64,000 nt of DNA from Rhodocytophaga aerolata. GTDB lineage: Bacteria > Bacteroidota > Bacteroidia > Cytophagales > 172606-1. Under the pieces are notes generated by a model, which was not told where the DNA came from, did no database searches, and saw nothing but the letters and a program-made list of their open reading frames with translations. Location: the NCBI RefSeq assembly GCF_030503435.1, contig NZ_JAUKPO010000001.1, forward strand, positions 940,766 through 1,004,765, read 5' to 3'. A program made the translations under genes and the position numbers. Positions within the stretch are counted from its first letter, which is position 1. Each line of letters begins with the position of its first letter. Below, piece after piece: positions 27,900-40,987 of this stretch.

Positions 27900-29435
27900 A
27901 TGCATAAAAGATTAATTATTGCCAGTATAGGAATTTTACTTCCTGTACTGGCTAGTTACGCCCAGACTGCAGAAGATGCATTACTGTTTTCTAATACCTC
28001 TGTTAATGGCACGGCCAGGTTTCAGGGAATGGGAGGTGCTCAAACAGCCTTGGGGGCTGATATCAGTTCTATTTCAGGCAACCCCGCTGGCTTAGGTTTT
28101 TTCCGCAAATCTGAATGGAGCATTACCCCTAGTATAGGTTTTTCCAATACCCAGTCTAATTACTTAAATACAGTTACATCAGATGGCAAAAGTTATCTAA
28201 ATGTAGCAAATATGGGTATTGTGTTTGCCAAGCCAAAAGATGCAATTGTTGGAGGAAAATGGCGCGGAGGTGCTTTCGGTATAAGCTTTAACCGGATGAG
28301 CAGTTATCAGAGACAGGTTTCTTATCAGGGTGTAAACAATGTAAATTCTCTTCTGGACTCCTTCACAGACCAGGCTACAGGTATTACATTAGGTGATTTT
28401 GAAGGAAGCCTGGGTCCTCCACGACTTCAAGCCGCTTTTGATACTTATCTGATCAATCCTTTCTCTAATGATATCAATGAAGATAGATGGTTCAGTTCAA
28501 TTGGAGAAATAGAAACTTCGCCGGGTCAATATATCCAGGCGCCGGTACAGCAAAATGAAACTATTAACTACACCGGAGCCCGTAATCAGTGGAATTTATC
28601 TTATGGAGGCAACTATGATGACAAGTTATATTTTGGCGCTTCTGTAGGAATTTCAAACATCCGTTTTGGCCAGCAGAACCGGTATAGAGAAGTAGTACAA
28701 GCAAGACCTGAAGATCTTATTGTAGATAATTTTACTCTTACAGAAGATATAGATGTGAGAGGCACCGGTGTTAATTTAACGGCGGGTATAATTTATAAAG
28801 CAAATGATATTATTCGCTTCGGAGCTTCGTTTACTAGCCCAACTTGGTACAGACTAACGGACAATTACATTCCTAGAATCCAAGCTAATTTTGAATATCC
28901 GGAATTTTTTGATCCTGCTATAGAACGTTACCAAGACAAGACTATTGAGGTGGAACCTTTACGGTATAACCTAACTACTCCTTTAAGTATATCTGGCGGT
29001 CTGGCTTTGTTTGCAGGTAAAAATGGCTTTATTACAGCAGATGTTACTTATAGCACCTATAATAGTATTCGCTTTGGCAATAGCAATGAAGTAGATTTTG
29101 GGTCAGAAAATGAATTCATCAGCCGAAATTATCAGCCTACCGTTAATGCCAGAATAGGAGGCGAGTTCCGGAAAGATATTTTCAGGCTACGTGCGGGCGC
29201 AGGTTATCAAACAGATCCTTACAAAGATTTAGTGGATGATTTAAATAGACAAGTATTAAATTTTAGCGCTGGCGCTGGTATTCGCCTGCCGGAGTTTTAT
29301 ATTGATTTAGCTGTAGTGCATAATCGTTTTGACAACGGATATACACCCTATACTATTTCAAATCAGGCTACACCTTCAGTCATTATAAAAAACCGGTTAA
29401 CGAATGCTGTGTTATCTTTTGGAATGTTCTTTTAA
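27900..29435 (+). CDS. Outer-membrane beta-barrel protein (FadL/OmpP1/PorV-like)
   Basis: Signal peptide ...LASYAQ. N-terminal FQGMGGAQTALGADISSISGNPAGLGF motif. Alternating beta-strand pattern ending in a terminal aromatic (GMFF). Confidence 0.55.
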   Translation: MHKRLIIASIGILLPVLASYAQTAEDALLFSNTSVNGTARFQGMGGAQTALGADISSISGNPAGLGFFRKSEWSITPSIGFSNTQSNYLNTVTSDGKSYLNVANMGIVFAKPKDAIVGGKWRGGAFGISFNRMSSYQRQVSYQGVNNVNSLLDSFTDQATGITLGDFEGSLGPPRLQAAFDTYLINPFSNDINEDRWFSSIGEIETSPGQYIQAPVQQNETINYTGARNQWNLSYGGNYDDKLYFGASVGISNIRFGQQNRYREVVQARPEDLIVDNFTLTEDIDVRGTGVNLTAGIIYKANDIIRFGASFTSPTWYRLTDNYIPRIQANFEYPEFFDPAIERYQDKTIEVEPLRYNLTTPLSISGGLALFAGKNGFITADVTYSTYNSIRFGNSNEVDFGSENEFISRNYQPTVNARIGGEFRKDIFRLRAGAGYQTDPYKDLVDDLNRQVLNFSAGAGIRLPEFYIDLAVVHNRFDNGYTPYTISNQATPSVIIKNRLTNAVLSFGMFF

Positions 29436-29474
29436 TTAGTAGTGTTTTCTTTTATATAAAGAAAGGAAAGTAAA

Positions 29475-29738
29475 GTGGATAATAAAGTATATGCAAGCTT
29501 AAAACAGAAACTAGACGAGCAATTTGCTTGGCCTATGTTGTATATGTTCAAGTTCATTGTTCCGGAAGCTAACAAAGATAAAGTAATCACTTTGTTTAAT
29601 AAACACGATGTTAGCAGCCGGGATTCTAAAAATGGGAATTACGTGAGCCTGACAATTCAGATGTTTATGAAATCAAGCGAAGACGTAATTGATGTGTATA
29701 AAAAAGCTTCTACTATAGAAGGTTTAATTGCTTTGTAA
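29475..29738 (+). CDS. DUF493/YbeD-family (UPF0250) protein
   Basis: 87 aa with a GTG start. Colinear with E. coli YbeD (FAWPMLYMFKFIVP ~ FPTPFTYKVMG; SKNGNYVSLTIQM ~ SKGNYHSVSITI). Confidence 0.7.
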   Translation: MDNKVYASLKQKLDEQFAWPMLYMFKFIVPEANKDKVITLFNKHDVSSRDSKNGNYVSLTIQMFMKSSEDVIDVYKKASTIEGLIAL

Positions 29739-29765
29739 AAACTAAATAATATAGGTATCAGGGAA

Positions 29766-29797
29766 AAGGATGAAGTTTAGACTTCATCCTTTTTTGT
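29766..29797 (+). terminator. Rho-independent terminator
   Basis: aaggatgaagt-ttag-acttcatcctt followed by TTTTTGTTTC. Confidence 0.75.
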
Positions 29798-30191
29798 TTC
29801 TATCTAATAGGTTTTCTTAACATTCGTAAAAAGCTACATTCAATAACTGTGAACATTGCAAGCTTAGGTTACCATTACCTGGTTTTTCCATTAACTATAA
29901 AATCAGTAGAATTGGCAGCACAAAAATTTATAAAAATTATTATACTTTATTAATCCGTATACATTGCCAATATCAAAATTATTTATATCTTAAAGCAATA
30001 ATTCATCACACATGAAAATGGCCAAAGACCCTTTCCTGGAACAAATGCTTACCCGATGCCCCTGGTCAGGTAAGAAATAGTGTGATATTCTTATGCCCGG
30101 ATATTCCTAAAACTCTATATTGAGGCCGGAAAATAGGTTCTACCCTTTGTCTGTATATCTTACAGCCTAACATTATTAAATTAAATTTCCT

Positions 30192-30893
30192 ATGAAAGAG
30201 TTACTAGAAGCTTCTGTTTCACTAGTAAATGTTATTCCTACGACTTTACTGGTTTTTGTGATTCTGTATTGGCTCATAGTTATACTCGGGCTGATAGATA
30301 TGGATGCCATAAATTTAGATCTGGACCACGATGTAACGGTGGAACATGAAATTCATACTACTTTCCACACACATGCCGATATTCCAACAAAAGATGTAGC
30401 TGTGAAGGAAATGCACAACACAGAAGTAGCCAACTCTGGTAATTGGATGCAGGCTGCGCTTGTATTTTTTAACCTGGGTAAAGTGCCTTTTATGGTATTT
30501 ATGAGCTTTCTGATTCTACCTATATGGGCTATTTCTATCCTAGTGAATCATTATTTGGGAAACAGTTCGATACTTGTTGCTATAGCATTATTGATTCCGA
30601 ATATACTTATCAGTTTCTTTATAGCAAAAATTTTGACTACCCCTTTTGTCAAGGTATTCAGTTACTTGCAAAACGATCCGGATAAACAGCAAGTTTTAGG
30701 GCAAATTTGTACAGTGCTCCTGCCTGCCGGTTCTGGAAAATTAGGCCAGGCGGTTATCAACAACAAAGGCAATACCATACTTTTAAATGTAAAGTCGGCA
30801 GATGGCCATACATTAGAAAAAGGAAAAAGTGCCCTTGTTCTTGAGTTTAATAAAGAAAAACAATACTATTTAATTCAATCCTTTGATCAATAA
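30192..30893 (+). CDS. NfeD-like / YuaF-like membrane protein with C-terminal OB-fold-like domain
   Basis: 233 aa. Three to four TM segments, a His/acidic loop (DLDHDVTVEHEIHTTFHTH) and a C-terminal beta-rich soluble domain. 7 bp upstream of the flotillin gene. Confidence 0.6.
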   Translation: MKELLEASVSLVNVIPTTLLVFVILYWLIVILGLIDMDAINLDLDHDVTVEHEIHTTFHTHADIPTKDVAVKEMHNTEVANSGNWMQAALVFFNLGKVPFMVFMSFLILPIWAISILVNHYLGNSSILVAIALLIPNILISFFIAKILTTPFVKVFSYLQNDPDKQQVLGQICTVLLPAGSGKLGQAVINNKGNTILLNVKSADGHTLEKGKSALVLEFNKEKQYYLIQSFDQ

Positions 30894-30899
30894 ACAACT

Positions 30900-33101
30900 A
30901 TGTTCACATCTGTAACTTTCGCGGTTATAATTTTTATAGCCTTTTTTCTGATTGCCACCCTTATTTTTATAGCCAACTGCTATCACAAAGCAGAGCAAGG
31001 CATGGCCTTGATAAAAACTGGTGTTGGCGGTACGCATGTTTCTTTTTCAGGTATGATTGTCATTCCGGTAATGCACAGACTAGAGATGATGGATATTTCC
31101 CTGAAAACAGTAGTTATTTCCCGGCAGGGTAAAGAAGGATTGATTTGTAAGGACAATTTACGGGCAGATATTAAAGTAACTTTCTTTGTGCGGGTAAACA
31201 AAACAGAGCAAGATGTTATTCAGGTAGGCCAGTCTATTGGTTGCCGTAGAGCCTCCGATACTAAAGCATTGGAAGACCTATTTGATGCTAAATTCTCCGA
31301 AGCCCTGAAAACAGTAGGTAAAAAATTTGACTTTATTGAACTGTATAATTCCAGAGAACTCTTTAAGCAAGAAATTCTGCAAATTATAGGTACAGATTTG
31401 AATGGCTATATCCTCGACGATTGTGCCATTGATTACCTGGAACAAACTCATATTGAGGCATTGAATGAAAATAATATTATGGATGCGGAAGGCATCAAAA
31501 AGATTATTGAACTGACTGCCAAACAAAAAATAATGGCCAATCATTTTGAGCGGGAAAAAGAAAAAACCATTACCCAGCAGAACGTGCAAGCGAAGGAAGC
31601 TATACTGGAACTGAACCGGCAGTTGGCAGAAACCGAAGAAAAGCAAAAGCGGGAAATTGCTTCTATCCGTGCCCGTGAAGAAGCTGAAATCGCTGTAATT
31701 CAGCAGCAAGAACGGCTGAAAGCAGAAAAAGCACGCATTCAAACTGAAGAAGAATCCCGTGTAGCCGAAGAAAATCGCGACCGTCAGATTATAGTAGCGC
31801 AGAAGAATAAAGAACGCGTAGAAGCTGTAGAAAAAGAAAGAGTAGATAAAGACCGTTTACTGGAAGTTACAGAAAAACAACGGATCGTTACACTTGCTGA
31901 CATTGCCAAAGAGAAAGCCATTGAAGAAGAACGCAAGAATATTCAGGAAGTAATCCGCGAAAGAGTAGCTGTACAAAAAGCAGTAGTGGCCGAAGAAGAA
32001 AAGATAAAAGATACCCAAGCATTTGCTCAGGCAGACCGTGAAAAATCCGTAGCTATCAAACGTGCGGAAATGCTAGCGGAAGAATCATTGGTTCAACAAA
32101 TAAAAGCTGCCGAAGCTGACCGCCAGTCTGCCGAATTGAAAGCCAAACGCCTAGTAGTAGAAGCTGAAGCAGAGCAAGCCACTGCCGGCAAAAAAGCAGA
32201 AGCCATTAAAATACTGGCCGATGCTGAAGCCGCCAAAGCAGCCGCTGTAGGAGTAGCAGAAGCCCAGGTAATTCAAGCTAAAGCCTTGGCCAAAGAAAAA
32301 GATGGTAAGGCGGATGCTACGGTTATAGAGAACAAAGCCATAGCTGAAGCTAAAGGCATAGAGGTGATGGCGAAAGCGCAGGCAGAGGCTGATGAAAAAT
32401 TAGGCTTAGTGGCTGCCAAGATCAACAAAGAGAAAGGCTTATCCGATGCCAATGTAATTGAAGTAAAAGCGCAGGCAGAAGAGAAAAAAGGCTTAACAGA
32501 AGCTAAAATTATGCATGAGAAGTTCACAGCGGAAGCCAAAGGTATTGAAAGCAAGGCAGATGCTATGCGTAAATTAGACGGCGTAGGCAAGGAACACGAA
32601 GAGTTTAAGTTGAGATTACAGAAAGAAAAAGACGTTGAACTGGCTATGATCAACATTCAGAAAGCAATTGCCGATGCACAAGCTACCGTATTGGGAGAAG
32701 CCCTGAAAGTATCTAAAATTGATATTGTGGGTGGCGAAACTATGTTCTTCGACAAACTGGTGAATTCCATTAGCAATGGAAAGTCTGTAGATAAACTGTT
32801 TACCAATAGCCATGTACTGACAGATGTTAAAAACACGTTCTTTACCAATGGAAACGGCAATGGACACAGTAATGGAAAAGATGACCCCAAAGCTATATTC
32901 AGAGATAATCTGAAGAAGCTGGTAGATCAGTTTGGCATTACATCAGAAGATGTAAAAAACCTGAGTGTGGCTGCCCTCCTGATGCAGATGTCTAAGTTGG
33001 CTGACGATAAAGAATCCAAAGGCTTGCTTAATCAACTGATGCAAATGGCTAAAAAGAAAGGCGTTTCTGACGATGCTGCGCAGACTTTAGGTATCTGGTA
33101 A
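30900..33101 (+). CDS. Flotillin-family protein (FloT/YuaG-like: TM hairpin, SPFH domain, EA-repeat flotillin domain, about 200-aa C-terminal extension)
   Basis: 733 aa. N-terminal TM, a band-7 core and long AEAEA/KAEAEK coiled-coil repeats. Confidence 0.8.
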   Translation: MFTSVTFAVIIFIAFFLIATLIFIANCYHKAEQGMALIKTGVGGTHVSFSGMIVIPVMHRLEMMDISLKTVVISRQGKEGLICKDNLRADIKVTFFVRVNKTEQDVIQVGQSIGCRRASDTKALEDLFDAKFSEALKTVGKKFDFIELYNSRELFKQEILQIIGTDLNGYILDDCAIDYLEQTHIEALNENNIMDAEGIKKIIELTAKQKIMANHFEREKEKTITQQNVQAKEAILELNRQLAETEEKQKREIASIRAREEAEIAVIQQQERLKAEKARIQTEEESRVAEENRDRQIIVAQKNKERVEAVEKERVDKDRLLEVTEKQRIVTLADIAKEKAIEEERKNIQEVIRERVAVQKAVVAEEEKIKDTQAFAQADREKSVAIKRAEMLAEESLVQQIKAAEADRQSAELKAKRLVVEAEAEQATAGKKAEAIKILADAEAAKAAAVGVAEAQVIQAKALAKEKDGKADATVIENKAIAEAKGIEVMAKAQAEADEKLGLVAAKINKEKGLSDANVIEVKAQAEEKKGLTEAKIMHEKFTAEAKGIESKADAMRKLDGVGKEHEEFKLRLQKEKDVELAMINIQKAIADAQATVLGEALKVSKIDIVGGETMFFDKLVNSISNGKSVDKLFTNSHVLTDVKNTFFTNGNGNGHSNGKDDPKAIFRDNLKKLVDQFGITSEDVKNLSVAALLMQMSKLADDKESKGLLNQLMQMAKKKGVSDDAAQTLGIW

Positions 33102-33316
33102 AAAATGAGTACATAGATGCTCATAGGTAGGAATGTTACTATATAAAAAAGCTAGTAACATATGCCTTCAATTTAACAAAAGTAATTTTTCTGACTGTGT
33201 GCTGTTATCAAAAATGACAGCATACAGTCTTCTACCTATCTTACAGATCATTCACCGAAGAATGGTCAACTAGCTTTATAGATAAGCTAATCTTCAAGTA
33301 AAGATTTATTAGCTCC

Positions 33317-36300
33317 ATGGCAAATCCAACCCCAGCAATAAAAGAAAATCCGGTAAAAGAAGCACATCTGGAAGAAGGCACTTATGAAATAATCCGGAAC
33401 CGCTTGCGTAAACAAGGAAACGAACTGCGCACCCGACTCGATACATTGAATCACAAAAGGCGTGAAGTATTTGGTTCTATTGAAACACGTTTGCTGGCTA
33501 CCGAACGCATTACTACCGACAACAACTGTGTCCCAGTAGACATGGTTCCTGTAAATGACCTGTTCATTTTTGGATACAATGTACACATGGGCCTAAAAAC
33601 AGAGACTAGTATTAGTGATGTATTTAGTGTTTACCGGTATCAAAACCACAGTTTCGTTCAACAGCCTTTAGATTTAATTGCAGACAAACGTTTTGAAGAA
33701 GATTTTAAGAATCTCTACAAATACTACCGGAATACACAGTTTGCCAAATTTGCTTTATTAGGTCAGCGGCTGTTTATGATTTTTCAGGTTGGAAAAAGCC
33801 AGGATGATATCAAAACCTTTAAATGGGTAATAGAAGGAGACAAACTAACCTATGTGGATAACCGCAGTGAAGGCGAATTTTCATATCCGGACCAGTACCA
33901 GTTTAAATGGAAACGAACCTCCCGCGAAGCACGCAGAGAAGGAAAGTTCCCACATATATCTATCGCTGACCGGGTATTTGTTGAAACCATCGGCGGCGAT
34001 CTTACGATCAAAATAGAAAATAACACAGCCAGTGGAGAGGGCATTTATTCAGAAGAGGTAAAACACAAAGACCAGACCCTGGACGATGCGGAAATCTTCT
34101 ATGCCATAATTGGGAGCATTGTGGTACTCAAAATCAAACCATTTCAGGAAAATGAGTATCGCTATATTGTATACAATGAAAAAATCCGGCAGGCACGCCG
34201 CATAGATTCCCTGAAAGATTCCTGCGTATTTCTACCCGACGACCACGGAATTATTTTCGCAAATGGGTATTATCTGCAAACTGGAGAATACAAGCTATTC
34301 GATACTCAAATGGCTAATATGCTTTTTGAAAAACGTATTGCTTCTCCCAATGGCGAAGATTTTCTATATATATTTTATAGCAAGGTTACCGGCATTTATG
34401 AGTTACTCTCCTATAACCTCATAGAACAAAAAGTGGCCATTCCAATTATTTGCCATGGCTATTCCATCTTTGAAAATGGCGAACTCTGCTATTTTAAAGG
34501 AGAAGACGAGCCTAAGAAACATCATGTTGTACAAATCTGGCAGACACCCTATGTAGACCCTAACTTTCCCCTGCACACAAGCAATAGTGAGTCCTATTTG
34601 TATAAAATCGGCAATAAAGATGTAGTTAGGGCAATGGCCGAATGCAACGAACTGCTCACGTTAATCGACCGGGACGACAGTTATGCCAACTTGTATCTGG
34701 ATCTGGTAAAGATGTCTACCGATATTATAGACTCTTACCACTGGCTTAATAAAGAAGAAACCCTTCGTTTGATTGAGCCGCTAGCAGAGCTAAAGCAATC
34801 GGCCTCAACGGCCATTGAGGAGTTTGAAAAAGTAACCCGTATCAAAAAGAATACAGCTGTTGAGGTAGAACGGGTAACTGGCAAAATCACAAAAGTATTT
34901 GCAGATGTCAAACGGCAACAGCCCGAAAGTATTGATTATTTTGTACATTTTCTGGCTGAACTGCGCACCCTACGAGGAGAAACTATTTCGCTAAAAAGCC
35001 TGCGGTATGTAGCCATTTCTTCCATTGAAAGTAAGGAAAAAGAAATTGAAGCATATACTACAAAACTATCTGATGAGTGTGTGCAGTTTTTATTAAAAGA
35101 CGATGCGTTACTGCCCTACCACCAGAAAGTTACACTGCTGCAAGAGCATATCAACAAAATAGAAAAAGTAATAGATGCCAGCAAAACAGAAGAAGAAATA
35201 ACCAAAACATCGCAGGAACTGGAGATGTTGATAGAGGTGGTAAGTAACCTCAAAATTGAGGATGCTACCCAAACCACGCGGATCATTGACAATATTTCTT
35301 CTATTTATGCCCATTTCAACCAGATTAAAGCTGCCCTTAAACGCAAAAGACAGGAATTAGTAGGTATAGAAGGCAAAGCTGAGTTCGCCTCCCAGTTAAA
35401 ACTTATAGATCAGGGAGTGGCCAATTATCTGGATATTAGTGAAACACCTCAGAAATGCGATGAATACATCACTAAGCTAATGGTGCAACTGGAAGAGCTG
35501 GAAGGAAAATTCACCGAATTTGAAGAGTTTACGGAAAAAATTACAGAAAAGCGGGAAGAAATATACAATGCCTTTGAAAGCAAAAAACTAAGCCTGATTG
35601 AAGCCAGAAATAAACGTGCCACTAGCCTGCTGCAATCAGCCGAACGGATACTCAAAGGGATTAATAACCGGGTAACTTCTTTTGCTACCAGCTCAGAAAT
35701 TAACGGCTACTTCGCCTCTGATCTCATGGTAGATAAGGTACGCGATATTATTAAGCAATTAATTGAAATTGGCGATACCGTAAAATCAGATGACATCCAA
35801 AGCCGTCTAAAAACTGCCCAGGAAGAAGCCATACGCCAGCTGAAAGACCGCCAGGAATTATTTGTAGATGGAGCCTCTATTATTAAGTTTGGCGACTTTA
35901 AGTTTTCTGTCAATACGCAGCCATTAGATCTGACGATGGTCTACCGCAACGGAGATATGTATTACCATTTAACAGGGACTAATTTCTTTGAGAAAGTAAC
36001 CAATGCCGCTTTTAACAACTCCCGTAACGTATGGGAACAAAGCTTAGTGTCGGAAAACAAACAAGTATACCGCGCCGAATATCTGGCTTATCAGATAATT
36101 AAGAAGGCACAAGAAGCTGAAAAAACTTCTGTATCTAACGGAATGCAATACCTGACTCTGGAAGTTCTACATAAGTTAACCGATGAAGAGTTACTTGCCT
36201 ACATTCAGAAGTTTATGGCTCCCAGGTACAATGAAGGCTATATAAAAGGAGTGCATGACCATGATACACGGATATTACTCCGGGCATTGCTGAACTTTAC

Positions 36301-38257
36301 TCAAACAATAGATCTGCTGAGGTACCCTTCTGCAGCCCGTGCCTGTGCTTCGCTTTACTGGCAATACTTTGCCGATGCCGGCCACAAACAACTTATGTAT
36401 CACCGGCTGAAAGGGGTGGGCATTATTTTACAAGTATTTCCGAAAACCCGGGAATTTGGCGGAATTATAGAAGAACTACAGGCTGAGATAGCTGCATTTA
36501 GCCGGGAGAATAAATTATTTAGTGAGACTTTTGCACCCGAAGCTGGGGAGTACCTATTCTACGAAATTACCCGCAGCGACAGTTTTATTGCGGATGCTGA
36601 GGCGGCGGATTTGTATAATCAGTTTATGCACTATTTGGCATCCAACCATTCTGCCGACAGATACCACAGTTCCATAGAAGCGCTGGAAAATACACCCATT
36701 GCCCGGTTTAAATTAATTAAAAAATGGCTGGGCGCTTATATTGATTTTATTTATCAGGAAGCTAAACGGGAGTATTTAGATGAAACGGCTGTCCTGTTAT
36801 ATGGGGAAGATCTGGAGAAAAAGAAAGTGATTCAGCTATCTCTTAAGTCTGAAATAGAAGGCTTGCAAGGTTCACATGCTGTAATAGAAAATGGCCGGTA
36901 TCAGCTGGATTATAACAGCTTCATGACTAAACTGAAACTATTTGATACGCAACTAGTACCTGAGTTCAGCCAATTTCAGGATACAAAGAAAAAGCTATTG
37001 GAAGAATTTAAACAAGATCTGCGGTTGGAAGAATTTAAATCTCACGTTCTGACTTCCTTCATCCGGAACAAACTGATAGATCAGGTATATCTTCCATTGA
37101 TTGGAGCTAACTTAGCCAAGCAGATTGGTACGGCTGGCGATACTAAACGTACCGACCGTATGGGTATGTTGCTATTAATTTCACCTCCGGGATATGGTAA
37201 AACCACCTTAATGGAGTACATAGCCAACCGTCTGGGAATTATTTTTATGAAGATCAACGGACCAGCTATAGGACATAAAGTTACTTCATTAGATCCTGCA
37301 GAAGCACCGAATGCCTCAGCCCGGGAAGAAATTGAAAAGCTTAGTCTGGCCCTTGAAATGGGTGATAATGTCATGTTGTATCTGGATGATATTCAGCATT
37401 GTAATCCGGAGTTTTTACAGAAATTCATTTCCCTGTGCGATGCTCAACGTAAAATAGAGGCTGTATACAAAGGCAAAAGCCGCACCTATGACTTACGTGG
37501 CAAAAAAGTATGTGTAGTCATGGCCGGTAATCCCTATACCGAAAGTGGTGAAAAGTTCCAGATTCCGGATATGCTAGCCAACCGGGCTGACATTTACAAC
37601 CTCGGCGACATTATTGGCAATGCAAGTGAGGCTTTCAAACTGAGCTACATAGAAAACAGCCTGACCTCTAACCCGGTTATGCAAAGGTTGAGCAATAAGA
37701 GCCATGCAGATGTGTTGGCGATAGTCCGACTAGCTCAGACTGGTAGCAAAGATGGCATTACCTATGAAGCAAGTCATTCGGCAGAAGAAATTAATGAATA
37801 TGTAGCGGTACTGAAAAAGTTATTAGTTATTCAGGAAGTTATTTTGAAAGTAAACAAAGAATATATTCATTCGGCTGCACAGGCAGATGAGTTCCGTACA
37901 GAACCTCCTTTCAAACTACAAGGTTCTTACCGGAATATGAATAAAATGGCTGACAAAGTGGTAGCCTTAATGAATGACCAGGAATTGGAGATGGTTATCC
38001 AGACGCATTACGAAAATGAAGCCCAGACATTAACTACCGGAGCTGAGGCCAATCTGTTAAAATTTAAAGAACTCATAGGAAAATTAACACCCACAGAACA
38101 ACAACGATGGGAAAATATTAAGGCTACTTACGTAAAGAATAAGAAGATGAGAGGATTAGGCACTGATAATCAGGTAGGGCAAGTAGTTTTAACTATGGAA
38201 TCTATTTCGGAAGGCTTGCAAGGTATAAAACAAGCTCTTTTAACAAAGGAAGAATAA
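33317..38257 (+). CDS. Giant (1,646 aa) coiled-coil protein with C-terminal MoxR/AAA_5-like AAA+ ATPase core
   Basis: Walker A LLLISPPGYGKTT (about nt 37180-37215). Walker B VMLYLDDIQH (about nt 37365-37395). Sensor/Arg region MAGNP...NRADIYNLGD. The upstream 1,250 aa or so have no recognisable motif and include a long E/K/L-rich heptad region (aa about 480-900). Automated pipelines may label such proteins DNA repair ATPase; that is from memory and unverified. Confidence 0.7.
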   Translation: MANPTPAIKENPVKEAHLEEGTYEIIRNRLRKQGNELRTRLDTLNHKRREVFGSIETRLLATERITTDNNCVPVDMVPVNDLFIFGYNVHMGLKTETSISDVFSVYRYQNHSFVQQPLDLIADKRFEEDFKNLYKYYRNTQFAKFALLGQRLFMIFQVGKSQDDIKTFKWVIEGDKLTYVDNRSEGEFSYPDQYQFKWKRTSREARREGKFPHISIADRVFVETIGGDLTIKIENNTASGEGIYSEEVKHKDQTLDDAEIFYAIIGSIVVLKIKPFQENEYRYIVYNEKIRQARRIDSLKDSCVFLPDDHGIIFANGYYLQTGEYKLFDTQMANMLFEKRIASPNGEDFLYIFYSKVTGIYELLSYNLIEQKVAIPIICHGYSIFENGELCYFKGEDEPKKHHVVQIWQTPYVDPNFPLHTSNSESYLYKIGNKDVVRAMAECNELLTLIDRDDSYANLYLDLVKMSTDIIDSYHWLNKEETLRLIEPLAELKQSASTAIEEFEKVTRIKKNTAVEVERVTGKITKVFADVKRQQPESIDYFVHFLAELRTLRGETISLKSLRYVAISSIESKEKEIEAYTTKLSDECVQFLLKDDALLPYHQKVTLLQEHINKIEKVIDASKTEEEITKTSQELEMLIEVVSNLKIEDATQTTRIIDNISSIYAHFNQIKAALKRKRQELVGIEGKAEFASQLKLIDQGVANYLDISETPQKCDEYITKLMVQLEELEGKFTEFEEFTEKITEKREEIYNAFESKKLSLIEARNKRATSLLQSAERILKGINNRVTSFATSSEINGYFASDLMVDKVRDIIKQLIEIGDTVKSDDIQSRLKTAQEEAIRQLKDRQELFVDGASIIKFGDFKFSVNTQPLDLTMVYRNGDMYYHLTGTNFFEKVTNAAFNNSRNVWEQSLVSENKQVYRAEYLAYQIIKKAQEAEKTSVSNGMQYLTLEVLHKLTDEELLAYIQKFMAPRYNEGYIKGVHDHDTRILLRALLNFTQTIDLLRYPSAARACASLYWQYFADAGHKQLMYHRLKGVGIILQVFPKTREFGGIIEELQAEIAAFSRENKLFSETFAPEAGEYLFYEITRSDSFIADAEAADLYNQFMHYLASNHSADRYHSSIEALENTPIARFKLIKKWLGAYIDFIYQEAKREYLDETAVLLYGEDLEKKKVIQLSLKSEIEGLQGSHAVIENGRYQLDYNSFMTKLKLFDTQLVPEFSQFQDTKKKLLEEFKQDLRLEEFKSHVLTSFIRNKLIDQVYLPLIGANLAKQIGTAGDTKRTDRMGMLLLISPPGYGKTTLMEYIANRLGIIFMKINGPAIGHKVTSLDPAEAPNASAREEIEKLSLALEMGDNVMLYLDDIQHCNPEFLQKFISLCDAQRKIEAVYKGKSRTYDLRGKKVCVVMAGNPYTESGEKFQIPDMLANRADIYNLGDIIGNASEAFKLSYIENSLTSNPVMQRLSNKSHADVLAIVRLAQTGSKDGITYEASHSAEEINEYVAVLKKLLVIQEVILKVNKEYIHSAAQADEFRTEPPFKLQGSYRNMNKMADKVVALMNDQELEMVIQTHYENEAQTLTTGAEANLLKFKELIGKLTPTEQQRWENIKATYVKNKKMRGLGTDNQVGQVVLTMESISEGLQGIKQALLTKEE

Positions 38258-38615
38258 TAGATAAAAACCATTGGTAGAAGAATGTGAACAGGAAAATTAG
38301 AGAAACTGATTCCTTTCAACGGCTTCTTACGTAATATTTTATACAGAATTAGGCGAATTCTCCGTAGGTGAGTATAAATTAAAGATTATTTATGCAGGTT
38401 TATTTATTCTGTTACAAGTAATATACAGGAAATTTTGCTAATCTAAAGGCTTTTTCTTCTTTGGGCTTTAGGAGTAAGCCATCTGCTGCTTTTTTAAGCT
38501 AAAACAATTCTAATGTAAGCATACCATCGTATTTATTTAGTAAAAACTATAAATCCTGACGAACTTTCGGATATAAAACAAGCAAGATCTATAACATTAC
38601 AAAATATATACGGCA

Positions 38616-38897
38616 ATGACCAGAGAACAATTAGAACAAAAAATTAAAGAGATGGAAGCTACCATTAACCAGCTGAAACTGGAAAAAGAAGAAGCTCAGC
38701 AACTGGTAGAAGTAGTATATGAATGTGTACAAAAATTAGAAAACAAATACAGAAAGTCTGTAAACCGGGAATTGAGTTACCGCGAAATGCTGTTCCATTT
38801 CAATCACCAGAAAGCACAGGATTTATTAAGAGATTATATCAGCAAAGATGCCCTGAAAGTACAGTTCTATGGTGCTTACAACTATCGTTCTAACTAG
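38616..38897 (+). CDS. Small coiled-coil hypothetical protein
   Basis: 93 aa. Heptad-like N-terminus. Followed by a strong terminator. Confidence 0.4.
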   Translation: MTREQLEQKIKEMEATINQLKLEKEEAQQLVEVVYECVQKLENKYRKSVNRELSYREMLFHFNHQKAQDLLRDYISKDALKVQFYGAYNYRSN

Positions 38898-38930
38898 TAA
38901 ATAGAAATAAAAACAATAAGCTATGGAAAG

Positions 38931-38960
38931 AAACCTGCTCTAGAGCAGGTTTTTATTTTT
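38931..38960 (+). terminator. Rho-independent terminator
   Basis: aaacctgctct/agagcaggttt perfect stem followed by TTTTATTTTT. Confidence 0.8.
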
Positions 38961-38970
38961 AACGCCATAC

Positions 38971-38998
38971 AAAAGCCTCCAAATATTTGGAGGCTTTT
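38971..38998 (-). terminator. Palindromic hairpin downstream of the convergent minus-strand gene
   Basis: aaaagcctccaaatatttggaggctttt. Perfect 11-bp arms flanked by A/T runs on both sides. Confidence 0.65.
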
Positions 38999-39022
38999 GT
39001 ATACGAATAGTAAGGAGTTCAT

Positions 39023-40987
39023 CTACTTTCTGCGCACAGAGAATTTGGCATCTTTTACATACAGATCATACCACTGATTGGTTTTACTGTCATGACGGGT
39101 AACAACTCCAGAGAATGTACCTTCAATTAATTTATCGTCATAACGAGTAACTGTAATTTTATTTTGCTTGATCTTTTCAGGTCCATTTGGCCCATAGGCA
39201 GTATAATAATTCAGCCGCTTCCCATCTTTCACTACCGTTACATTTATGCTCGGCCTGCAACCATAGGTGCCATTTACTGTACTGCATAAACCGTTAAATT
39301 CTCCTTTTTCACAACCGGGCCACTGTAATACCAAAGAAACAGGATCTGTCTGGTCGTTGCCTACACTGGCTCTGGTACTTTCCTCATTTGTACAATACCC
39401 AATCATGGCATTATCTGATGCTGAAAGTTTATTTAAATCCATCACTTCGTTGGTAAATCCATCTCCATTCAATGTTACAGTATTTTCATTAAGTACAGCT
39501 TTAGGAGGTTCACATAATTCTACATTGCCCAACTCTACAGTAACGCCATCTTCATTAGGAGCTTTAAATGTTATATCTCGCATTTTTCCGGTTGTATGAT
39601 CAATGATAGTGATGGAAGACTCATATCCTGGTGCTACTGTCACCCGGAAAACGCCTCTTTCATCAGTAGGACGCTTGCCATATGAGAAAATTTCTGATGT
39701 ATTAAGAACAAAATTGGCTTGAATTGGATTGCCATTGCAAACGGTACGGCCCACCACGAATACCGGACATGGAACTTTAAACGTCCGTTTTTCGGGTTTT
39801 TGCCCCAAAGTAAATGGACCAATATCCGCTACTTTTCGAATCAAACCAGGGCCCTGATATAGTAGTACAGGCAATACCCGGTTATCTGGCACACGGCGTA
39901 TTACTACTCCATTTTCGTCTGAACTAGCCCATGCCTGCCCAATGGTCATGAATACTTTTCTTACCGGATAACCTGTACAAGGAATTCCCCCAGTAGTAAT
40001 TGGTTCTCCCGGATTTTCAGGGTCTATAGGAGTCCGTTCTACTTTACCTTCACCACTACCAGTTCCATCAGTTTCTATGACAAACTCAACTTCTACTCCA
40101 GTTCCAGGTACATCACAGTTCCAATCAGTGAAGTGTTTCACTTTGCCAATGTAGCGGCTACCTTCTCGTGCTGCTTCACCTTCTTCCATCCATAACCCTT
40201 TCTGTTCATCAAAGTACCACAATGGTATGGTAGATGGCGCATCTGATGTCTGTTTAGATGAGATAGCCACTGTAAGGGTAGCTTCTTTCCCGTTTGCAAG
40301 TTGCAGGTCATTGCCATTACTGTCGCGTAGGAGTACACGCAGTATACCATATGAATATAGCATACTACCACTTTCATCTGTGCGTTGGGCTGCTAAATCG
40401 CCTCCTGGTACAATGGCTGGAAATGCCTCATCTGTTGGATCTAAATGGCGTAGTGTGACATTTACTTGCCCGGAGTATAAGCTACCATCTGCTTTTACAA
40501 TACCATTTGCCGGAATTTGCACGGAAGATCCGTTAGGTAAATTAGCGGTACCACCTGTATTAGCATCTAACTGATGAGTAGCTGTGGCACCCATTAATAC
40601 CATTTGCACAAAAGCTTCGCCATTCGCTTTGGGTATAAGGGCTGTAGAACCAGTAAAATAGCCTTGTTTGGTACATTTTAAATAACACCGGTTAGCCGGT
40701 ACTTGTATGTTAGATAATGTAAACTCTCCTGCAGCATCTGTGGTGATAGTTTTACCATACACCTCCACTTGCGCACCAGACACTGGCCGCTGATTTTCAT
40801 CAAGAACTAAACCCGATAAAGTGGTACTGATTTTAGGACCATCATCAGAAATATACTGGCTATCTGTTGATGAATTAAAAGACGGCACATGTGTATCGTC
40901 TTTTTTACAATGTGAAAGGAATAATCCAGTAGAAATCAATGAGGCGATTACAAATGGACGGGAGAAAGAAAAGTACTTTTGAAACAT
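39023..40987 (-). CDS. Large secreted lipoprotein with carboxypeptidase-regulatory-like (Ig/transthyretin-fold) domain
   Basis: The track start is a GTG. The ATG at 40987 gives MFQKYFSFSRPFVIASLISTGLFLSHC with a lipobox. VSGAQVEVYGKTITTDAAGEFTLSNIQ matches the CarbopepD_reg pattern. Confidence 0.55.
   Translation of the reverse strand: MFQKYFSFSRPFVIASLISTGLFLSHCKKDDTHVPSFNSSTDSQYISDDGPKISTTLSGLVLDENQRPVSGAQVEVYGKTITTDAAGEFTLSNIQVPANRCYLKCTKQGYFTGSTALIPKANGEAFVQMVLMGATATHQLDANTGGTANLPNGSSVQIPANGIVKADGSLYSGQVNVTLRHLDPTDEAFPAIVPGGDLAAQRTDESGSMLYSYGILRVLLRDSNGNDLQLANGKEATLTVAISSKQTSDAPSTIPLWYFDEQKGLWMEEGEAAREGSRYIGKVKHFTDWNCDVPGTGVEVEFVIETDGTGSGEGKVERTPIDPENPGEPITTGGIPCTGYPVRKVFMTIGQAWASSDENGVVIRRVPDNRVLPVLLYQGPGLIRKVADIGPFTLGQKPEKRTFKVPCPVFVVGRTVCNGNPIQANFVLNTSEIFSYGKRPTDERGVFRVTVAPGYESSITIIDHTTGKMRDITFKAPNEDGVTVELGNVELCEPPKAVLNENTVTLNGDGFTNEVMDLNKLSASDNAMIGYCTNEESTRASVGNDQTDPVSLVLQWPGCEKGEFNGLCSTVNGTYGCRPSINVTVVKDGKRLNYYTAYGPNGPEKIKQNKITVTRYDDKLIEGTFSGVVTRHDSKTNQWYDLYVKDAKFSVRRK

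Follow-up and report, generated by a model that had tools for sequence, protein, structure and literature searches.

The window, a 64-kb stretch of a Rhodocytophaga aerolata contig, carries on its forward strand the following genes, the last of which is the subject of this analysis:

30192..30893, + strand: YqiJ-like (DUF1449/NfeD-type) membrane protein, 233 aa, ~3 transmembrane (TM) segments by hydropathy scan; first gene of the unit
30900..33101, + strand: flotillin (YqiK-type SPFH protein), 733 aa; WP_302036179.1, NCBI "flotillin family protein"
33317..38257, + strand: AAA+ ATPase, 1,646 aa; WP_302036180.1, without a TM segment by hydropathy scan

The open reading frame (ORF) on which the earlier note was based is real: 33317..38257 on the + strand encodes a 1,646-aa cytoplasmic multidomain AAA+ ATPase of the DUF3686/DUF7902 family, which NCBI names "DNA repair ATPase." Pfam matched DUF3686 (PF12458; E = 8.2e-190) to aa 36-475, covering the full length of the model, and DUF7902 (PF25472; E = 1.2e-29) to aa 596-680 (nt 35102-35356). 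The family comprises 595 representative clusters at E ≤ 1e-30, from Bacteroidota, Planctomycetota, Acidobacteriota, Verrucomicrobiota, Gammaproteobacteria, and Sumerlaeota, and its cross-phylum protein identity, 42-62%, is unusually high. Sequence searches of the PDB with the single protein and with a family profile returned P-loop-level matches only, so the family is without a solved structure.

The identity of the first gene product depended on profile comparison: plain BLASTP of the 233-aa protein against Escherichia coli YqiJ gave no significant match, and a profile of 14 orthologues aligned with E. coli YqiJ over 135 columns (hhalign probability 94.9%, E = 4e-8). The flotillin has an N-terminal TM segment, an SPFH domain, and a long Ala/Glu/Lys-rich helical region; BLASTP matched it to E. 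coli YqiK (E = 8e-44, 31% identity over 444 aa), and Pfam placed Band_7 on its N-terminal 267 aa (5.7e-10). Pfam and NCBIfam found nothing when given the full-length flotillin, presumably owing to the biased composition of its helical part. We searched its C-terminal tail (aa 641-733) for a docking motif; the tail is poorly conserved among linked flotillins, and no obvious motif is therefore apparent. Both partners are thus membrane proteins, whereas the ATPase has no TM segment.

Conservation of the gene neighborhood

Related loci came from a metagenome scan with an alignment as the query, which sampled a neighborhood of ~41-96% identity; a scan of genome contigs with the single protein as the query gave only two true loci. 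Of 65 related loci, 63 carry a flotillin homologue upstream of the ATPase gene and in the same orientation (two lack flotillin); a YqiJ-like homologue is found upstream in 51 of 58. The conserved unit has the ATPase gene in third place: YqiJ-like 3-TM protein, YqiK-type flotillin, ATPase. Across 68 loci, the identities of the AAA+ protein and of the flotillin to the query covary (r = 0.88), suggesting that the two are inherited as a unit. At one of the loci without flotillin (L085), the genes adjoining the ATPase encode AIM24 and an M48 membrane peptidase instead, so the context is still one of membrane proteins. At 18 of 50 related loci there is a dyad of CesT-like and PspA genes, both assigned by Pfam; tblastn found neither a PspA nor a CesT-like gene in the 64-kb window. 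The genes that flank the unit here have housekeeping roles (prolyl-tRNA synthetase, serine dehydratase, and short-chain dehydrogenase). The flotillin/YqiJ context, on which the earlier note was silent, is the main clue to function.

By comparative genomics, Ravi et al. (2024, mSystems; PMC11237479) described a CesT/Tir-PspA-flotillin-AAA+-YqiJ operon type, noted that an "abbreviated operon" form is more widely distributed, and proposed for the operon a chaperone-like role in sub-membrane dynamics. Our locus agrees with theirs in domain content (DUF3686 plus DUF7902, with a propeller and a helical region before a single AAA+ module) and in its neighbors, a TM+band-7+flotillin protein and a 3-TM YqiJ/YuaF-type protein; the full form has the CesT/Tir-PspA dyad, and the window, which lacks it, holds the abbreviated form. 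That paper assigns the ATPase to no structure-based clade; nothing essential differs otherwise. Since family and operon have already been described computationally, the present locus adds to what is known of such systems and does not establish a new kind. The literature that we searched contained no mention of DUF3686 and nothing that paired "DNA repair ATPase" with "flotillin."

Predicted domain architecture of the ATPase

Two AlphaFold2 models, with mean pLDDT of 82.8 and 86.5, together span the whole protein. Behind an N-terminal helix (aa 18-52), they predict the following parts in this order:

aa 58-409, nt 33488..34543, + strand: WD40-type beta-propeller, the core of DUF3686
aa 427-847, nt 34595..35857, + strand: segmented helical arm, containing DUF7902
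aa 856-893, nt 35882..35995, + strand: small beta domain
aa 919-1163, nt 36071..36805, + strand: all-alpha domain
aa 1177-1270, nt 36845..37126, + strand: linker of two strands and a 37-residue helix
aa 1283-1428, nt 37163..37600, + strand: AAA+ alpha/beta core
aa 1434-1646, nt 37616..38254, + strand: AAA+ lid and C-terminal helices

The propeller region is modeled with ~30 strands at pLDDT ~90, and Foldseek matched it in the PDB to WD40-type structures: DCAF1, Vps18, the clathrin terminal domain, and IFT-A. The earlier note did not mention this propeller.

It had instead described a very long heptad stretch, of about 420 aa, in the part that we term the arm. Residues 427-847 are indeed predicted to be all-helical (pLDDT ~75-93), and aa 501-800 are moderately enriched in E, K, L, and I (0.41-0.45, compared with 0.26-0.38 elsewhere). 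The continuity of the stretch was not borne out: the heptad signal is patchy. A crude a/d-occupancy scan, which is informative for the positions of high-scoring windows and not for continuity of register, brought out only five segments, 37-45 aa long, that reach the 99th percentile of shuffled sequences. AlphaFold2 divides aa 486-847 into 11 separate helices of 10-58 residues each, the longest having 48, 58, and 51 residues, and ten loops break the arm. Homologues have hardly any indels across aa 451-900, and hhalign detected no internal repeats, such as spectrin-like units, within the arm.

The small beta domain occurs in both models, at a low pLDDT (~50-75) in model 1 and at 64-91 in model 2. 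The all-alpha domain that follows is predicted well (pLDDT 84-96) and has no Pfam or PDB sequence match. In a comparison of the query with 31 full-length homologues, E913, R919, G978, H980, and D983 are among the invariant residues. The linker carries a conserved segment, SFVRN...LPLIG.NLAKQ, through which it joins the ATPase. Propeller and all-alpha domain correspond to the globular, aromatic-rich regions that had been proposed to flank the helical part. The overall layout, a late and intact AAA+ core behind a long, mostly helical N-terminal region, likewise stands; the term "long coiled-coil stalk" fits what precedes the core only in part.

Catalytic motifs and fold class of the AAA+ module

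The motifs of the AAA+ module are as follows:

aa 1289-1297, nt 37181-37207, + strand: Walker A (P-loop), SPPGYGKTT
aa 1353-1358, nt 37373-37390, + strand: Walker B, MLYLDD
aa 1379-1392, nt 37451-37492, + strand: beta-hairpin ahead of sensor 1
nt 37526-37534, + strand: sensor 1, GNP, starting at G1404
nt 37583-37585, + strand: candidate arginine finger, R1423
nt 37919-37933, + strand: QGSYR of the candidate sensor 2, within the invariant EPPF.LQGSYRNM

Walker B and the NRADIYNLGD segment (aa 1422-1431) lie where the earlier note had put them, as does Walker A, although its first letter was misread: the motif is SPPGYGKTT, not GPPGYGKTT. S1289-T1296, D1357-D1358 (in DDIQH), the GNP of sensor 1, R1423, and R1539, like the NRADIYNLGD segment, are invariant in the query and 31 full-length homologues (29-53% identity), and the ATPase motifs are at least 90% conserved among 71 representatives. 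Because the motifs remain invariant in homologues down to 29% identity, the ATPase is not degenerate, a possibility that had been raised as grounds for rejecting the earlier description. The arginine-finger role of R1423 and the sensor-2 role of the QGSYR segment are putative.

The protein has a single P-loop and, in both models, one alpha/beta ATPase core, with Walker A and Walker B ~60 residues apart. Walker B is Asp-Asp rather than the usual Asp-Glu; DnaA also carries DDIQ at its Walker B. By analogy, the DD pair may mean that the enzyme hydrolyzes ATP slowly and works as a switch, not as a processive motor. The stretch from strand 2 to helix 2 shows no evident aromatic pore-loop motif.

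Structure comparison confirmed the AAA+ fold. On predicted structure, the motor belongs with MoxR/AAA_5-type AAA+ proteins: its core and lid fold are closest to MoxR members, a hairpin precedes sensor 1, and its nearest structural matches are the MoxR-family proteins CbbQ and NorQ. Similarity to E. coli RavA is weak at the level of sequence profiles (hhalign). The likeness is confined by several differences. MoxR proteins have ~250-500 aa, in contrast to 1,646 here, with ~1,250 extra N-terminal residues; they pair with a VWA-domain partner, and none occurs among the neighboring genes scanned here; their Walker B is DE rather than DD. No helix-2 hairpin is predicted: aa 1315-1332, which bear on the question of a MoxR helix-2 insert, form a conserved 18-residue loop without strands in the AlphaFold2 model.

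Proposed function and alternatives

We consider it somewhat probable (roughly 55%) that the protein is an ATP-driven remodeler acting on flotillin/PspA assemblies at the membrane or on the clients of these assemblies, with an AAA+ ring docked via the propeller and arm; this reading is drawn from sequence, predicted structure, and gene context. The single-module AAA+ domain would assemble into a ring, as we infer from like proteins. Propeller and helical arm would dock the ATPase on the cytoplasmic face of the flotillin/YqiJ assembly and, where PspA polymers are present, there too. ATP hydrolysis would then act on this putative substrate, its likely direction being to remodel or disassemble the assembly or to pull out client proteins held there, in a role in membrane maintenance or stress. 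A precedent for the pairing is FtsH-HflK/C, in which an AAA+ machine is paired with an SPFH-family cage at the inner membrane; our locus resembles it in combining SPFH and AAA+ proteins and in the NfeD/YqiJ-type partners of SPFH proteins.

A bolder form of this proposal, which we hold as tentative and on the whole doubtful, is that the family is the missing bacterial counterpart of Vps4: a dedicated ATPase that takes apart or recycles flotillin (SPFH) cages and, in loci with the dyad, PspA (ESCRT-III-type) polymers. It could combine a MoxR-type motor with a propeller/helical-arm adaptor in place of the MIT domain. According to a 2025 review, a Vps4-like ATPase seems to be absent from bacteria (PMC7619361). 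The family described here could serve the turnover of bacterial flotillin scaffolds and PspA polymers. The resemblance to Vps4/ESCRT-III, a superfamily that includes PspA, lies in the linkage of the ATPase gene to PspA at the dyad-bearing loci and in its candidacy for ATP-dependent turnover of a membrane-bound polymer; Vps4 itself carries a MIT domain at its N terminus and an AAA module of the classical clade, and we found neither here. As a soluble AAA+ ATPase with fully conserved catalytic motifs and flotillin adjoining in nearly all sampled loci, the protein is nonetheless a concrete and testable candidate for a Vps4-like role, and the domain boundaries given above can be used for construct design.

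The alternative that we take most seriously, while thinking it improbable, is that the protein is a MoxR-type assembly or quality-control chaperone that acts on client membrane proteins, with flotillin/YqiJ merely as a platform; it would mature or extract clients or hand them over, possibly to proteases. CbbQ and NorQ, its nearest structures, remodel or activate other protein complexes; the ATPase of L085 adjoins AIM24 and an M48 (HtpX-like) membrane peptidase rather than flotillin; and FtsH-HflK/C could serve as a precedent for this arrangement as well. Against it, no VWA-domain partner occurs among the neighboring genes scanned, the window holds no protease gene, and the tight flotillin linkage, together with the covariation of the two proteins, fits a direct partner equally well or better.

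Far less probable is force transmission along a very long coiled-coil stalk, as in dynein/midasin-like or MukB-like proteins, which the geometry had suggested to the earlier note more strongly than a soluble MoxR chaperone. The closest structures are in fact soluble MoxR chaperones, and the comparison is contradicted in its defining features. Dynein and midasin (Rea1/Mdn1) have six modules per chain plus a stalk or a MIDAS domain, whereas this protein has one P-loop and one AAA+ module with no stalk inserted in it; its arm has no helix longer than 58 residues and is interrupted by loops, with patchy heptads. In SMC/MukB proteins, a long antiparallel coiled coil bearing a hinge divides the ABC-type head; split head and hinge are absent here, and family-profile searches with the protein matched neither SMC nor ABC families.

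An anti-phage or abortive-infection system at the membrane is similarly remote. Large NTPases whose several domains include a propeller or repeat sensor are common in defense systems, and phage-induced membrane stress triggers PspA-type systems. PADLOC, however, gave generic P-loop matches only (best E = 0.00057), the neighbors are housekeeping genes, and both the cross-phylum conservation and the covariation of ATPase and flotillin are atypical of defense islands.

Least credible of all is a DNA repair ATPase that works on DNA like RuvB, as in the NCBI name and the Pfam description of DUF3686, a name that has no support in these data. The RuvB P-loop reads GPPGLGKTT, similar to SPPGYGKTT here, RuvB shares the hairpin before sensor 1, and there are weak local matches to RuvB chains near the P-loop, Foldseek hits among them, an hhalign match to E. 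coli RuvB (95.7% over 75 columns), and a weak local RuvB_N match (24.4 bits against a cut-off of 27), but the protein gave no full-length match to the RuvB equivalog model and has no RuvA partner.

Features flanking the ATPase gene

Three further features lie on either side of the ATPase gene:

33102..33316, + strand: 215-nt spacer that separates the flotillin gene from the AAA+ gene; structured, with one stem of 16 bp (33193-33208 / 33214-33229)
38616..38897, + strand: small helical ORF, 93 aa, downstream of the ATPase gene
38929-38954: terminator-like hairpin beyond the 93-aa ORF

Rfam found nothing above threshold in 29400-39100. The spacer RNA folds at −62.6 kcal/mol (z = −6.35; none of 200 shuffled sequences folds as well), and its stem is kept in a 96%-identical relative (L011) with a G.U-to-A-U change. 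Equivalent spacers at 53 loci have a median length of 152 nt and a median z of −4.05. Such a strongly structured spacer between the flotillin and ATPase genes suggests that the two may not be strictly cotranscribed. Among related loci, the 93-aa ORF was found only in the same 96% relative; it may close the unit as its last gene, in this lineage alone.

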